This document shows positions 1,738 through 43,676 of a stretch of DNA of 64,000 nucleotides, in pieces. Both the position numbers and the translations under genes were made by a program. The stretch is taken from positions 123,989-187,988 of IMG/VR virus record IMGVR_UViG_3300014204_000113; one strand, 5' to 3'. This DNA is from a virus. Its lineage: Duplodnaviria; Caudoviricetes. Below the pieces are notes generated by a model, which worked only from the letters and a program-made list of their open reading frames with translations, was not told where the DNA came from and searched no databases. The first letter of the stretch is position 1, and every line of letters starts with the position of its first letter.

Positions 1738-2422
1738 ATCCAAGAAACCTAAAGGTATCTCTCCAGAAGAATTCTTAAAAAACCTTAACACTCTAGATTT
1801 GTTGGATGGGAATTTTTCTGATAATGATGCCTTAGCTCTTATGAAATTAGCTAAAGAATCAATCAAAGATAAAAGTGGACCTTTTAATTTTTTAGAAATT
1901 GGAACATGGAAGGGGAAATCACTTATTTGTCTCTCTGTTATAATAAGTAAATTCCCAGAAAGTAAAATTTTTGCTATAGACCATTTTAAAGGTACATTTG
2001 GAACAAACGAAGAACAACTTGCTAAAACTAATGACATATTGACAACTTGTAAAAATAATTTAAAAATAGTAAATGCTAGTGATATTGTTTGTCTATTAAA
2101 TATGAATTACTTTGATGCAATCAAAATATTAAAGCAAAAATTTTTTGACTTTATATATATTGATATGGACAATAGTTATCAAGTAATGAAAAGTGTTTTG
2201 TGTGATTCTAGAAATTTAATTAAAAGTGGAGGAATGATATGTGGAAGAAATTTAATTGCAGATTATCTAGATGTAAAAGAAATTATAGACTCTAATCTTA
2301 ATAAAGAATATTTAGAAGAATCAAAAATGCATCCTGGAATTATACGATCTGTCTATGATGTTTTTGCAAATAAATATCAAAAAATGGATAATAGTTCTTT
2401 TTGGTATTGGATTAATAATTAA
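1721..2422 (+). CDS. class I SAM-dependent methyltransferase (Methyltransf_24-like)
   Basis: LEIGTWKGKS, AIDHF, FDFIYID, KSGG motifs. Confidence 0.8.
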   Translation: MSKKTKSKKPKGISPEEFLKNLNTLDLLDGNFSDNDALALMKLAKESIKDKSGPFNFLEIGTWKGKSLICLSVIISKFPESKIFAIDHFKGTFGTNEEQLAKTNDILTTCKNNLKIVNASDIVCLLNMNYFDAIKILKQKFFDFIYIDMDNSYQVMKSVLCDSRNLIKSGGMICGRNLIADYLDVKEIIDSNLNKEYLEESKMHPGIIRSVYDVFANKYQKMDNSSFWYWINN

Positions 2423-2434
2423 TAATATTTGGTA

Positions 2435-2560
2435 ATATCCAACTGGATATTGTGTTGTAATGTTCTGTGTTGTGTGGCGCTGTAGTGTAATGTTAAGTCC
2501 TGTAGTGTGGCGTAGTGTGTTGTTATGTGTTCTATTCTAAGGGGATTCTGTATTGAATCC
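2435..2560 (+). ncRNA. 5-nt-period TGT-NN array (18 units, 2451-2540) flanked by hairpins; putative guide RNA
   Basis: 13 TGT units plus GGC, AGT, CGT and two TCT; hairpins ATATCC/GGATAT (2435-2450) and GGATTC/GAATCC (2543-2560); intergenic, directly upstream of RAMP-like gene. Confidence 0.7.
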
Positions 2561-2586
2561 AAAATAAATTTAAGGAGAATTAAATA

Positions 2587-3153
2587 ATGAAAATTAAAGT
2601 TACAATTCAAGGAACAGTTCCAATTTTATTTAATCGTTTTGCAGAAGAGAATGAAGTTAAAGTTGCTTCTGGAATTAATCCAGTTCAAGGAGGACAAAGA
2701 GGAACGCCTAGAGAACAAGCAGAAAAGAAACTATATCAAGACGTGGATGGGAATTTGTTTCTTCCAAGTCCTATGTTATTTTCTTGTTTAGTAGATGCTG
2801 GTAAATTCCATAAAGTGGGAAGAAATAAAGTTACGACTCAGAAGACTTCTTTAGTTCCTGCCGGTATATCTGTTGAAGAATTAATCATTCCGTTTAATAC
2901 TAAAGATTGGGAAATTGATTCTAGAAGCGTTGTGATACCATCTACTGGTGGTAGAATCATGTGTCACAGACCCCGGCTTGATGAGTGGCAATTAACTTTC
3001 ACTTTGGATGTTGATACAACAATGTTTGATCCTAAGTTTGTTAGGACTCTTATGGATGATGCAGGCAAGAAATGTGGCTTGGGTGATTATAGACCTAATC
3101 GTAAAGGGCCATTTGGTAAATTTGTTGTGATTAATTGGGAAGAAGAAAAATAA
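2587..3153 (+). CDS. stand-alone RAMP/Cas7-like protein (putative Vipr-type RNA-guided effector)
   Basis: N-terminal strand KVTIQGTVPIL, LFLPSPML..CLVDAG, RPR..W.LTF, C-terminal G-rich loop GLGDYRPNRKGPFGKF; AAGGAG SD; adjacent 5-nt arrays. Confidence 0.7.
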   Translation: MKIKVTIQGTVPILFNRFAEENEVKVASGINPVQGGQRGTPREQAEKKLYQDVDGNLFLPSPMLFSCLVDAGKFHKVGRNKVTTQKTSLVPAGISVEELIIPFNTKDWEIDSRSVVIPSTGGRIMCHRPRLDEWQLTFTLDVDTTMFDPKFVRTLMDDAGKKCGLGDYRPNRKGPFGKFVVINWEEEK

Positions 3154-3181
3154 TAAAAAATAAGATCAAGGATGGAGAATT

Positions 3182-3487
3182 ATGAAATTTGAATTAATGA
3201 AAGAATTAAACGAATTAATTCTTTCTATTGACAACCCGGTTGAAACAGCAACAGATTGGCTTTTTGATTATCAAACCTATAGTTATAATTATATAAGCGC
3301 AGAAACAAAAAATAGAGTTGATAAACAAGAAGAATGGTTAAATTTACATCAACAACCTATTCTTTTAGGCGAGGAAATACAAACTGAAGAAGAAACGCTT
3401 GAGGAAATACTTGATGAACTTGAATCTTGGCTTCCTGCTCTTCAATCTGCTATTTGGGCAGTAAAAGAACTAAAGAAGGAATATTGA
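3182..3487 (+). CDS. hypothetical acidic protein
   Basis: GGAG SD, ORF track. Confidence 0.65.
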   Translation: MKFELMKELNELILSIDNPVETATDWLFDYQTYSYNYISAETKNRVDKQEEWLNLHQQPILLGEEIQTEEETLEEILDELESWLPALQSAIWAVKELKKEY

Positions 3488-3497
3488 GGGTAAATAG

Positions 3498-4054
3498 ATG
3501 ACAGTATGGTTCAGTGGAGACCAGCATCTTTCGCATGACTCTAAACATGGAGGAATAATCCAATATTGTAATCGTCCATTTGTAAGTTTGAAAGAAATGA
3601 ATTCAGTAATTATTGATAGAATGTTAGAAAAAGTTCATAAAGGAGATACATTATATTCTTTAGGCGATTTAACTTTCAAAAAAGATGTTGCTTTAAAGTT
3701 TGTTGAAATAATTAAAAAAAATAACATCAATTTAATTTATATAAGAGGGAATCACGATAAAAATATCCTTCCTATTTTGAACACAGAAGGAATAAAAGTA
3801 TATGATTTATTAACAATAAATATTGCAAAACAACCTATAGTTTTGTGCCACTATGCGATGAGGACTTGGGACAATGGAGTTGCCATAACTCTTGGCAACT
3901 CCATTGTCACAGTCACCACACACTATCTCCGCAAGGTAAACAACTAGATTGTGGGGTGGATGGATTTGATTTTTATCCAGTTTCTTATGATACGGTAAGA
4001 AACATTATGAAGACAAGACCTGATAATTTTAATTTAACGAAAGGTAGAATTTAA
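3498..4054 (+). pseudogene. calcineurin-like metallophosphoesterase, frameshifted near 3870-3878
   Basis: GDQH, LGD, GNHD, LCHYAMRTW in one frame; SWQLHCHSH and DCGVD in another frame ending 4054. Confidence 0.75.
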
Positions 4055-4166
4055 AATTCCTACTAGAAACTACCTCTCAGAAGGTTATTTTCACGCCTGA
4101 AAATGCGTAGATATCACCCAGAATGAACGATAATTTAAAAGAGGTAGTTTGATAGGTAATTTTAAA
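4050..4166. other. long interrupted inverted repeat / structured RNA candidate
   Basis: TTTAAAATT-CCTA-AAACTACCTCT pairs with AGAGGTAGTTT-TAGG-AATTTTAAA; inner ATTTTCA/TGAAAAT hairpin. Confidence 0.55.
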
Positions 4167-4201
4167 AAACGACCAGTTTTGAGGCTAATAATGATGATTG
4201 T

Positions 4202-4303
4202 GGTCTGGTTAGGTTAGGTGAGGTGAGGTCAGGCTGGGTGGGGTGCGGTAAGGTGTGGTATGGTAGGGCGAGGGAACTGACTCATTTACAGATGAGTCAG
4301 TTC
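4202..4303 (+). ncRNA. GGY-NN array (14 units) with 12-bp 3' hairpin; putative guide RNA
   Basis: 14 consecutive GGT/GGC trinucleotides at exact 5-nt spacing (4202-4271); GAACTGACTCAT/ATGAGTCAGTTC stem 4274-4303 followed by ATTTT. Confidence 0.8.
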
Positions 4304-4345
4304 ATTTTAAACTAAGAATCTTACGGATGTTAATAAGGAGGATTG

Positions 4346-4789
4346 ATGGACTTTCTTGTTCTCTCAAGGCAACAATCTGAATTGATTGACCCAACTAAAA
4401 GCCATATTATCATATCAATTACAGACCCATTTGATGTTCCTGCCAATTTATTTCCGAATGATAATTGCAAAGGAATATTGCAATTATCATTCCATGACAT
4501 TGATTCAGAAGTTATAGCAGACAAACATAAATTGGAATTGTTTACGAGAGAACAAGCAAGAAAAATTCTTGATTTTGTTGATGAAAATATAAACAATATC
4601 GAATTGATTATCGTAGCGTGTGAGGCTGGTATCAGTAGATCATCATCTGTTGCCGCTTTTTTAAGTGAGATATATAATGGACATGATTCTGGTTTCTTTA
4701 GAACTCATATTCCAAATAGGTTTGTTTTTAAACAATTGATGTATGAACATGAGAATATAAATATAGAGGACATGTTTTTAAACAATTGA
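4346..4789 (+). CDS. protein tyrosine/dual-specificity phosphatase-like protein
   Basis: IISITDP, FHD, CEAGISRS (CX5R) motif. Confidence 0.8.
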   Translation: MDFLVLSRQQSELIDPTKSHIIISITDPFDVPANLFPNDNCKGILQLSFHDIDSEVIADKHKLELFTREQARKILDFVDENINNIELIIVACEAGISRSSSVAAFLSEIYNGHDSGFFRTHIPNRFVFKQLMYEHENINIEDMFLNN

Positions 4790-4827
4790 TGTATGAACAT
4801 GAGAATATAAATATAGAGGACATGTTT
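4723..4827. repeat. perfect 50-bp tandem duplication
   Basis: 4723-4772 equals 4773-4822, with TGTTT microhomology. Confidence 0.95.
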
Positions 4828-5023: not shown

Positions 5024-5206
5024 ATGGCTTTGAAATTAACAATTTATAGAGAATTCATCTTAGACGATTTATGGGGAACCAAAGAAGAATTTGACGAACT
5101 AGGTGAAAATACATTTCTAGATATGATTGCTGATGCAGACCCATTAAGTATCATTGAAGAGGCGGGTGGCTTTAGAGAAATATTTAGAAAATTAGAATGG
5201 ATTTGA
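5024..5206 (+). CDS. hypothetical protein
   Basis: AAGGAG SD; last + strand gene before convergence. Confidence 0.6.
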   Translation: MALKLTIYREFILDDLWGTKEEFDELGENTFLDMIADADPLSIIEEAGGFREIFRKLEWI

Positions 5207-5565
5207 AAATAATAGTTATTGTATATCTTTCTACTATTGTTGTGGAGGCTGGAACTGCTGGAGTTAAGTTGTTTCCCCAAATACTACGGACATACCCGAC
5301 TCTCAACGCCCCGGACACCCTCATCTTTTGTGACTGTCGTGGTCTTCCGTAACACCGTAGACGCTATGGCCTCTCCGGTTTGCTTCCAAGCGGTTGCGGC
5401 AGAGTTCACCTCATAAGAAGCAGACGTGGCTACCGTCCAGGCCCGACAAAATGGATAACCCAGTCTGGCATATTGATTTCCCTCCCTTCACTGCGTGGCT
5501 GTTTGTTAACCCAAACTACTGAATCCACATATTAATCTGCGCATCATCAATCCAGGTTATCCTAT

Positions 5566-19167: not shown

Positions 19168-20484
19168 TCAAATATCCAACATATTTGCTATCTTATTTTT
19201 GTTATAATATCTTTTGTTTACCATTTCTGAATAAAAAGATTGATGCCATTCTCTATCAAAATTGGCCTTGGTGTTACAAGAGGTGCATAATGTAATTAAA
19301 TTCTTGGGATGGCAATTTAATTTATTATAATCAAGATGGTGAATTGTTAATTTATTATCATATTTTTTATTACATAGTGGATTAAGACACATATAATTAT
19401 CACGCTCTTTAATACTTTCTTTGTATTCTTTATCTTTCCACACACAACAATATGGTTCATAAGATTTACCACCTTGCCAATTATAATTGTTTGAACCACT
19501 TTGTGAAATAGATGATTTTATACTGCCACATTTTCTACATCTATGACCTTGAGAAAAACTATTATAAGAAATAAAAGATATATTTCCACATTCACATTTA
19601 TATTTTAATTTTTGATGACATCCTTTATATTCATTAAATAATGGAACACAACCACCTTCTATAAATTTTTCTTTAACAAATTCTAAACTATGTCTTATTT
19701 TATCTGAAAATTTTATAATCCCACATTCTTTACATCTATGGCCTCGCATAAGATTATCAAATGATGTATAAGAAATATTTCCACAACTGCATTGATATTT
19801 TAATTTTGTTCTAGCATCAATATATTCATTAAAGAGAGGGATGCAACCACCTTCTACAAATTTATTTTTTACATATTCAAGACTGTGTTTGCTATTGATA
19901 TTGCTTCTTTCAATTCCACATTTTCTACATCTATGACCATTACAGAAACCATTGAATGTGATTTGTGATTCATTCCCACAACTACATATATATTTTAATT
20001 TTTGTTGTGCATTTATATATTCATTAAATAATGGGATACATCCTTCTTCTATAAACTTATCTCTTACATATTCTATATCCAATCTTTTCTTTTCTGAAAT
20101 TCTTTTACCAACACAATTTGAACATCTTGATCCAGATTTAAAACTCGAAAAAGTTATAAAAGATATATTTCCACAATTACATCTATATCTCATTTTAGTG
20201 TGGTTATTTTTATAATTATCTTCTAAACATTCACACCCATTATCAATAAAAACTTTTTTGACATAGTTAAAATCTAATTTATAAAGTTCTTTATTTTTAT
20301 CAATATTACAAAATTTACATCCACTACCATTTTTTAAACCATTAAGACTAATTTTTGTTATATGACCATTATTACATTTACATTCAAGTGGAATTCTAGC
20401 ATACTTATATTCATTTTCTAATAAAACAAATCCTCTATTCTTAAATTCCCCCCTTGCTATATCTATAGTTATAATTTTAGACAT
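19168..20484 (-). CDS. HNH endonuclease with tandem Zn-ribbon repeats
   Basis: repeats of GCxPLFNEY..KLKYxCxCGN..F..GHRCxxC; RDNYMC..IHH.DYNK.N..NL.TLC.SC. Confidence 0.8.
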   Translation of the reverse strand: MSKIITIDIARGEFKNRGFVLLENEYKYARIPLECKCNNGHITKISLNGLKNGSGCKFCNIDKNKELYKLDFNYVKKVFIDNGCECLEDNYKNNHTKMRYRCNCGNISFITFSSFKSGSRCSNCVGKRISEKKRLDIEYVRDKFIEEGCIPLFNEYINAQQKLKYICSCGNESQITFNGFCNGHRCRKCGIERSNINSKHSLEYVKNKFVEGGCIPLFNEYIDARTKLKYQCSCGNISYTSFDNLMRGHRCKECGIIKFSDKIRHSLEFVKEKFIEGGCVPLFNEYKGCHQKLKYKCECGNISFISYNSFSQGHRCRKCGSIKSSISQSGSNNYNWQGGKSYEPYCCVWKDKEYKESIKERDNYMCLNPLCNKKYDNKLTIHHLDYNKLNCHPKNLITLCTSCNTKANFDREWHQSFYSEMVNKRYYNKNKIANMLDI

Positions 20485-43430: not shown

Positions 43431-43530
43431 TATTTTCTCCTTTTCTCTTTATAGGAGGTTTTTTCTTTTTATTGTCATCTCTGTGTATCATTTTTGTCAA
43501 CAGAACTTCTAATGGAATTAGGTCTCCCAA
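43411..43530 (-). CDS. 39-aa ORF (MGDLIPLEVLLTKMIHRD...), gapped match to adjacent array
   Basis: GAGGAG SD, TTG start; below ORF-track cutoff. Confidence 0.5.
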   Translation of the reverse strand: MGDLIPLEVLLTKMIHRDDNKKKKPPIKRKGENNDRKQQ

Positions 43531-43554
43531 TTTTTTCTCCTCTAAAAATAAAAA

Positions 43555-43644
43555 ACCATACCCTAGCCTACCCTACCATACCTTACCGTACCAAACCAAA
43601 TCACACCTGACCATACCGGACCATACCAAACCTCACCCCACCAT
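43555..43644 (-). ncRNA. GGT-NN array (18 units); putative guide RNA
   Basis: 16 GGT plus GAT and GCT at exact 5-nt spacing on the minus strand, intergenic, followed by T-run. Confidence 0.8.
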
Positions 43645-43676
43645 ATTAGAAATTATTTATATTCTTTTATTTTTTC

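Follow-up and report, generated by a model that had tools for sequence, protein, structure and literature searches.

A RAMP-like gene among pentanucleotide arrays

What is a small RAMP/Cas7-like gene, accompanied by arrays that repeat every five nucleotides (nt), doing in the genome of a phage? This question is raised by region 2435-4303 of a 64,000-nt stretch of viral DNA (hereafter the window, whose coordinates are used unless genome positions are stated), which is the final 64 kb of the IMG/VR virus record IMGVR_UViG_3300014204_000113. The record is a single sequence of 187,988 bp with direct terminal repeats, rated complete by CheckV (100%), and its portal gene falls in PHROG 145 (E 1e-107). 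An earlier note on this DNA had pointed to a phage family called VIPR in which such a protein works with RNAs of 5-nt period, and that family does exist: VIPR (Viral Interference Programmable Repeat) is the subject of three 2026 preprints (10.64898/2026.04.26.720920, 10.64898/2026.04.26.720927 and 10.64898/2026.10.15.759431), the protein encoded here matches the Vipr protein of SUSP1, and the arrays fit the published definition of vrRNA. We consider the locus to be a genuine VIPR system in a complete 188-kb phage, with a probability of about 0.9, and a member of the kind published in 2026 rather than a new kind. This assessment is based on homology, predicted fold, contact residues, array statistics, the co-occurrence of homologues with arrays, a near-match adjacent to one of the arrays, and comparison with the whole record of a sister phage (IMGVR_UViG_3300029288_001872, 189,632 bp), whose portal protein is 98% identical.

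According to the published work, Vipr is a minimal RAMP made of an RRM core, a thumb and a G-loop, and the vrRNA consists of 9-16 YNNGG units plus a 3' tail and follows a '1-nt skip' target rule, NNx (10.64898/2026.04.26.720920). VIPR systems are hosted mostly by viruses and comprise seven types and six accessory (vap) genes; variant repeats (NNNGG, YNNNG and NNNNG), types without vap genes or with a single vrRNA, and systems without self-targeting have been published as well (10.64898/2026.04.26.720920). In SUSP1, the first base of the scaffold (G1) is contacted by H17 and D177, the second (G2) by R138 and W178, and the third (Y3) by R179, C173, E71 and M72 (10.64898/2026.04.26.720927). Moreover, solo vrRNAs have been reported on satellites and on VIPR-null phages (10.64898/2026.10.15.759431).

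The 188-aa protein resembles SUSP1 Vipr

Open reading frame (ORF) 2587-3153 on the plus strand encodes 188 amino acids (aa) and ends in GLGDYRPNRKGPFGKF, the C-terminal Gly-rich loop being present as the earlier note had claimed; the G-loop GLGDYRP...GPFGKF can be read in the protein sequence. When the protein was compared with PDB chain sequences by phmmer, the sole match was 36pp, 'SUSP1 Vipr protein' (E 1.2e-6), with an alignment running through the G-loop, and a profile built from 41 clade sequences matched the same entry with E 1.6e-10. An AlphaFold2 model (predicted local distance difference test score 85, predicted template modelling score 0.78) was matched in Foldseek by type VII Cas7, Csm3 and Cas7-11 (E 3e-7 to 1e-4, probability 1.00), in agreement with the RAMP/Cas7-like fold that had been proposed from the letters. 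As the fold library ends on 8 April 2026 and no Vipr chain was among its matches, Cas7 is simply the nearest fold available in it. Pfam, NCBIfam and PADLOC gave no match for the window Vipr, and PHROGs placed it in the unannotated family 4652 only.

Contact residues were read against a SUSP1-family Vipr from Escherichia phage ESCO50, whose numbering reproduces H17, K33, R138, D177, W178 and R179. The alignment, at ~26% identity, equates R138 with R128, D177 with D167, W178 with Y168, R179 with R169 and C173 with C163. Therefore, the contacts to the second and third bases (R128, Y168, R169 and C163) and the first-base Asp (D167) are retained; SUSP1 H17 corresponds to N16, and K33 is unalignable. 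The product of ORF 2587-3153 is most likely a Vipr, a minimal Cas7-like RAMP, and by analogy with SUSP1 it would polymerise on vrRNA.

Homologues of the gene lie beside 5-nt arrays

The protein belongs to a large family. We found 1047 relatives among clusters at 90% identity, many of them at 60-80% identity, and 2536 representative clusters at E <= 0.001; the nearest homologues are 78-82% identical, and 45 columns are invariant among the 41 clade sequences. Cultured phages contributed only remote relatives (<30% identity), with tblastn leading to Felixounavirus (SUSP1-family) phages at ~23%. The linkage of homologues to 5-nt arrays, which the earlier note had put forward as a check, was found in 57 of 59 IMG/VR homologue loci, where period-5 arrays lie directly beside the gene and on the same strand.

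The composition of these arrays varies with distance from the window Vipr. Most loci at <= ~50% identity have near-strict GGY arrays, and many arrays flanking homologues at >= ~55% identity are of the form NGY/NN, in which position 1 is free or locus-specific: T in loci L040 (with 8 T-dominated arrays), L012/13 and L001, A in L046, and G in L006 and L010. Asn at the position of His17 is the norm in this clade (52 loci), with flanking arrays in all except L042. We rejected the replacement of His17 by Asn as a simple cause of the relaxed position 1, because the fraction of G at that position spans 0.07-1.0 among the Asn loci. In the L046 homologue, Cys and Ser stand at the SUSP1 His17 and Asp177 positions, and the first base of its three flanking arrays is A in 42 of 45 units (AGC/AGT); protein and scaffold may have co-varied there.

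No neighbouring gene is common to more than 7 of the 59 homologue loci. The 101-aa ORF, the phosphoesterase, the phosphatase and the methyltransferase that lie near the window vipr were considered as accessory genes and set aside, as none of them has a homologue in the 59 clade loci. Cross-scanning 117 arrays against all fetched loci yielded no targeting rule for the NGY clade.

The array upstream of vipr

Arrays were sought with a register-aware scan of both strands of the window, and 30 first-order Markov random windows served as the null, in which runs reached at most 4 units with GGY or TGT and 8 with NGY. The gene and the array directly upstream of it, A1, are accompanied by the following features:

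2363-2392, plus strand: sigma-70-like promoter match (TTGCAA-17-GATAAT, 9/12), ~60 nt upstream of A1
2412-3166, plus strand: cassette of A1 and vipr, 755 nt, without counterpart in the sister phage
2451-2540, plus strand: array A1, 16/16 NGY/NN units (2451-2530), 13 of them TGT, then two TCT units to 2540
2543-2560, plus strand: hairpin after A1, 6 bp (GGAUUC/GAAUCC), -8.2 kcal/mol, z -1.17, before the vipr ribosome-binding site
2587-3153, plus strand: vipr (paralogue C of the genome), with the TGT array upstream

The array that the earlier note had given as TGT-NN at 2451-2540 is thus real, but TGT accounts for 13 of the 16 units, the rest being other NGY triplets, and the two TCT units follow. 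A1 lies 56 nt upstream of vipr on the same strand, and the hairpin between them is a possible vrRNA 3' tail. Promoter matches of this kind number 17 in the region where 9.8 are expected, and are consensus matches only; the one at 2363-2392 could perhaps drive a co-transcript of A1 and vipr. Rfam revealed neither a hammerhead nor any other family near the arrays.

Given that arrays occupy the same position and strand in 57 of 59 loci, and that T-dominated arrays lie beside the L040, L012/13 and L001 homologues, we regard A1 as the probable cognate guide of the window Vipr, albeit with clear reservation. Its TGT scaffold fits both the NGY/NN arrays of the clade and the published YNNNG repeat class.

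Array A2 and its conserved surroundings

Downstream of vipr, a second array is preceded by a leader and followed by a hairpin:

4060-4201, plus strand: A2 leader, conserved and non-coding
4202-4271, plus strand: array A2, 14/14 GGY/NN units, ~1 kb downstream of vipr
4274-4303, plus strand: hairpin forming the A2 3' tail (4274-4286/4291-4303), perfect 13 bp, then AUUUU

The 14 perfect GGY units and the series of dinucleotides read from them in the earlier note were borne out, and the hairpin, put there at 12 bp, has a stem of 13 bp. It folds at -19.3 kcal/mol (z -6.45), none of 200 shuffles folds as well, and it is identical in the sister phage. The array does not behave as a microsatellite, as had been argued before: its fixed triplet alternates with 11 distinct dinucleotides, Tandem Repeats Finder (TRF) reports a match of only 76%, and the changes seen in the sister phage spare GG. 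The whole segment 4060-4345, which includes the 140-nt leader, has a mean column identity of 94% to the sister phage, and the two copies of the array differ by NN bases, C/T swaps at Y and one whole-unit indel, near which one sister unit is GGG. As A2 is kept in a phage that lacks this vipr, it is not specific to the window Vipr; the comparison points to a free-standing vrRNA gene under scaffold selection rather than a private guide of that protein.

Array A3 lies beside its own near-match

The third array had been placed at 43555-43642; it is real, spans 43553-43642 and lies on the minus strand. Its surroundings are as follows:

43490-43527, minus strand: near-cognate site of A3, codons 2-14 of a small ORF (GDLIPLEVLLTKM), in codon register with the wobble base skipped
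43530-43672, minus strand: insertion carrying A3, 143 nt, absent from the sister phage (pairwise alignment with L063)
43553-43642, minus strand: array A3, 16/18 GGY/NN units, solo vrRNA gene, then a T-run

The insertion follows the stop of a 65-aa zinc-ribbon gene and precedes the start of a 36-40-aa ORF. After A3 only the T-run is present, and no significant hairpin was found there. The guide spells G-[DE]-[FL]-[IM]-P-[IM]-[HQ]-V-[FL]-[FL]-T-[KN]-[IM], and its first 13 units match the site at 43490-43527, 26 nt downstream, at 22 of 26 positions, which is the unique best match in the genome and exceeds the maximum of 20 obtained with 200 shuffled guides; over its full length A3 reaches only 25 of 36. 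The sister allele of the small ORF reaches 23/26 and remoter relatives 20-22, and a perfectly matching allele was not found among the own, sister and relative alleles compared. These values fit a guide directed against variant alleles, with partial escape in the phage's own copy, and A3 would accordingly be aimed at alleles of the neighbouring small gene in related phages. A single A3 match in the metagenome collection, on an unrelated GC-rich contig and without extension, was rejected as chance.

Genome-wide complement of vipr genes and arrays

The genome as a whole has three vipr paralogues and 13 pentamer arrays, dispersed over ~100 kb. Besides paralogue C in the window, the vipr genes are:

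genome 83123-83653: vipr paralogue flanked by GGT arrays, nearest of the three to SUSP1 (E 1.9e-14)
genome 87107-87661: vipr paralogue flanked by GGC arrays

Consequently, the earlier description of the window protein as 'stand-alone' does not hold at the level of the genome, as two further paralogues lie outside the window. The equivalent of His17 is kept in both of them, and in the window paralogue it is Asn. GC content is the same (0.41) in the GGT-flanked and GGC-flanked genes, so base composition does not explain the choice between C and T. None of the three paralogues is matched by the PADLOC or NCBIfam Cas models. The absence of a CRISPR array, also claimed before, extends to the entire 188-kb genome, where no 18-mer occurs at least 3 times at 45-95-nt spacing; as to the claimed absence of other cas genes, Cas1 was not found in the genome, and a family-by-family search for other cas genes was not made. 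Upstream of the GGT-flanked vipr, two GGT arrays enclose an ORF for a DUF559/Vsr-like endonuclease (Pfam E 4.5e-8; L060:2712-3026, genome 82712-83026); after this vipr comes a DUF7352 ORF, and the GGT cassette lies downstream of recA.

Cassette turnover between sister phages

The sister phage keeps the flanking methyltransferase and the 101/104-aa ORF, but in place of A1 and vipr (2412-3166) it has 242 nt that encode a 68-aa zinc-ribbon ORF. An HNH-type endonuclease and an ORF of 135 aa are present in the sister and absent from the phage studied here. On this comparison, the A1-vipr region is a hot spot for mobile cassettes. The 101-aa ORF downstream of vipr is 91% conserved in the sister, and its retention there without this vipr indicates that it is not an accessory of it. 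The HNH-type endonuclease of the sister (PHROG 4645 and 1271; L078:3044-4021, G001:10044-11021) is located between the 104-aa ORF and the phosphoesterase.

The VIPR complement of the sister phage is of a different make: it has ~10 GGT arrays and no GGT-flanked vipr, and its sole Vipr is of a fourth, divergent type of 219 aa encoded upstream of recA. This 219-aa Vipr-like ORF (G001:154992-155651, L086) has the G-loop GLGEGRP...GWGTF and is followed by non-GGT repeat-like sequence.

What the guides match

Targets of the guides were sought under the NNx rule. No full-length guide rises above the shuffled-guide null in the phage's own genome. When the last four units were dropped, however, the own array at 68927 matched the sister phage at 18/18 positions, and the sister array G001:1116-1195 matched this phage at 24/24 (genome 117934-117968). 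These perfect cross-matches argue for a working NNx rule in this lineage, and the two sister phages appear to target each other. In the GGT arrays, the final ~4 units are semi-constant (GGTAA, GGTAT etc.) and apparently do not act as guide.

The proposal of the earlier note that the NN pairs spell a gapped target in competing phages is hence upheld for other guides of this genome pair, but not for A1 or A2. A gapped search with the dinucleotide string of A2 gave nothing above chance: neither IMG/VR nor the metagenome collection contained exact NNx patterns of 10-11 units, two matches in GTDB genomes were out of frame, did not extend and were as many as expected by chance, and the local best, 14/22 in a 60-aa ORF at 5054-5085, is at chance level. 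For A1, no target was found in the own or sister genome at skips of 0-3 nt or with position 1 taken as a third guide base, nor in IMG/VR or GTDB genomes. The scans of the collections (IMG/VR, metagenome collection and GTDB genomes) used exact patterns only, and as no mismatches were tolerated, the absence of targets there is weak evidence.

A proposed mode of action

By analogy with the solved SUSP1 complex, one Vipr protomer would bind each 5-nt unit of the vrRNA, with the fixed trinucleotide flipped into pockets of the protein and the two variable bases presented. In double-stranded DNA, the resulting filament would pair with two bases and pass over the next, and would block transcription of the target. 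In this scheme A1 would be the own guide of the window Vipr and be co-transcribed with vipr, A2 would stand alone as a guide gene equipped with a conserved leader and a hairpin tail, and A3, inserted immediately upstream of a small gene, would be directed against that gene's variant alleles in related phages. For the GGT guides, the probable loader would be the GGT-flanked paralogue (genome 83123-83653) or else any Vipr present in the cell. Transcription of the arrays, their loading, the pairing of paralogues with arrays and silencing are inferred. A bolder and tentative idea, which we think may well prove wrong, is that one phage uses three orthogonal VIPR 'dialects' (TGT, GGT and GGC) and that each solo guide, inserted at scattered sites, stands beside the phage's own escape allele of the gene that it attacks in sister phages, which would make of them an allele-exclusion, homing-like weapon between near-identical co-infecting phages, in which the guides of the sister may borrow the Vipr of a rival.

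Comparison with known systems

The closest described relative is the type II VIPR system of SUSP1 (Vipr, vrRNA and vap1). Both encode, on a phage, a protein of ~190 aa with RRM core, thumb and G-loop; both keep the motif GxGD[W/Y]RP...FG.F together with the Arg, Asp, aromatic and Arg contacts; and both have 5-nt arrays of 9-16+ units on the same strand and on both sides of the gene, with a significant 3' hairpin here after A2 only. Neither has cas genes or a CRISPR array (here, Cas1 and CRISPR repeats were searched), and in both, guides spell the coding sequence of rivals with the wobble base skipped, although here this applies to other guides of the genome and, imperfectly, to A3. Besides the low identity of the proteins and the change of His17 to Asn, the differences are that the adjacent array here is TGT/NN and not GGY/NN, that the tails are simple array-specific hairpins whereas SUSP1 has a conserved pseudoknot, that a vap1-like partner is missing here, that three divergent paralogues and 13 arrays extend over ~100 kb whereas SUSP1 has one compact locus, and that the last units of the GGT arrays do not match targets.

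Some of these differences have parallels among the published variants. In the arrays of the clade, position 2 is G, position 3 is a pyrimidine and position 1 is free or locus-specific, which corresponds to the YNNNG class among the variant repeats (YNNNG, NNNGG and NNNNG); as in the published types without vap genes, no conserved accessory gene was found. Likewise, A2 and A3 resemble the solo vrRNAs (10.64898/2026.10.15.759431) in having no adjacent vipr; A2 persists in the sister that lacks this vipr, and the sister itself carries ~10 GGT arrays without a GGT-flanked vipr, one of them matching this phage at 24/24. In contrast to the published phage solo guides, which occupy the site of a vipr-vap1 deletion, those described here are scattered through a VIPR-positive genome, and A3 lies directly beside the phage's own diverged copy of its target. 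With the backbone of class 1 CRISPR-Cas (Cas7, Csm3 and type VII Cas7), VIPR shares the RAMP fold and the G-loop, as well as a thumb by which the guide-target duplex is interrupted with fixed periodicity, but it has no repeat-spacer array, adaptation genes or other Cas subunits, and its period is 5 nt in the guide RNA and 3 nt in the target, compared with 6 and 6 in CRISPR.

Alternative explanations

Several findings speak against assigning the window gene and its arrays to VIPR. The first-base contact His17 of SUSP1 is replaced by Asn16, and A1 has T instead of G at position 1, so that binding of A1 is deduced from adjacency and the clade pattern, not from the solved contacts; targets of A1 and A2 were found neither in the own genome nor in the sister, IMG/VR, the metagenome collection or GTDB genomes; the A1 hairpin has no statistical support (z -1.17); and no vap gene is linked to the window vipr or conserved across the 59 loci. 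The same observations could be read as signs of decay or inactivity in the cassette of the window vipr and its TGT array, the working system being the GGT-flanked paralogue (83123-83653) with its dispersed GGT guides, A2 and A3 among them. That the residue reading the first G is still His in the other two paralogues, that 15 of the 16 A1 units are non-GGY, that no target of A1 emerged under any skip rule, that its tail hairpin is weak and that the sister phage does without the cassette would all agree with decay. Nevertheless, the ORF is intact, and the clade in which it falls shows strong conservation (45 invariant columns in 41 sequences, 60-80% identity, >1000 clusters); Asn is the norm of that clade, in 52 loci that are flanked by arrays in all cases except L042; and thirteen parallel changes from G to T at position 1 are not a product of decay, T-dominated arrays being found elsewhere too (8 in L040). 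We therefore think decay unlikely, while giving it some weight.

It would be much harder to explain the data by supposing that the pentamer tracts act at the level of DNA, as iterons, G-rich structure-forming DNA or slippage-prone repeats, with a RAMP-like gene nearby by chance. The tracts are indeed G-rich and strictly periodic, and no match to a promoter or terminator consensus stands out, but slippage does not yield non-identical units such as those of A2 with its 11 dinucleotides, and substitutions between the sister phages spare GG and keep the pyrimidine at position 3 in all but the one GGG unit. Moreover, the arrays are on the coding strand of the adjoining vipr in 57/59 loci, guides of the genome pair reproduce coding sequence of the rival phage without a mismatch and in codon register, and published small-RNA sequencing and cryo-electron microscopy show such tracts to be Vipr-bound RNAs; we hold this explanation to be very improbable. 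Least probable in our view is that the gene is a lone Cas7, as remnant or minimal effector of a class 1 CRISPR-Cas system. Although its best PDB fold matches are Cas7 of types VII and III, they came from a library, closed on 8 April 2026, that returned no Vipr chain, whereas the only significant PDB sequence match is SUSP1 Vipr, and neither Cas1, CRISPR-like repeats nor a PADLOC, Pfam or NCBIfam Cas match was found. Altogether, a VIPR system remains by far the preferred explanation of the locus.

Other features of the region

The metallophosphoesterase gene downstream of vipr (Pfam Metallophos, PHROG 547; 3498-4054) occupies two overlapping frames (3498-3947 and 3845-4054), as though a frameshift had occurred near 3880, and only its first ~190 nt can be aligned to the sister phage, at 71% identity. 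A perfect tandem duplication of 50 nt (4723-4827; 2.1 copies, 100% match) runs across the 3' end of the dual-specificity-phosphatase-like gene at 4343-4789. Homology to the corresponding stretch of the sister ends at 5245, and between 5200 and 12000 GC content rises from 32% to 46-52% over large minus-strand ORFs (one of 578 aa with a match to PHROG 17105, and one of 411 aa); this block may be a swapped tail-fibre or host-range module. At 19515-20073, TRF reports a 195-nt tandem repeat of 2.8 copies with 72-75% identity.

Significance

The known mechanism of VIPR is left unchanged by these findings. What deserves attention is the TGT scaffold with Asn in place of His17, the presence of three paralogues with three scaffolds, the free-standing guide genes and the turnover of the cassette. 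To VIPR, first described in 2026 and characterised in two type II systems, both of Proteobacteria, the present analysis adds a clade from uncultured phages that has >1000 clusters at 90% identity, is covered by none of the Pfam, NCBIfam and PADLOC models, shows a relaxed first base in its repeat and lacks an accessory gene. The gain and loss of a cassette, the drift of guides in their variable bases and the presence of a guide beside its own near-target are signs of recent conflict between sister phages with 98% portal identity, and provide direct genomic evidence for the model of warfare between phages. Moreover, three paralogues with three scaffolds in one complete genome allow a direct test of the specificity between guide and protein, which bears on the use of orthogonal VIPR tools within one cell.

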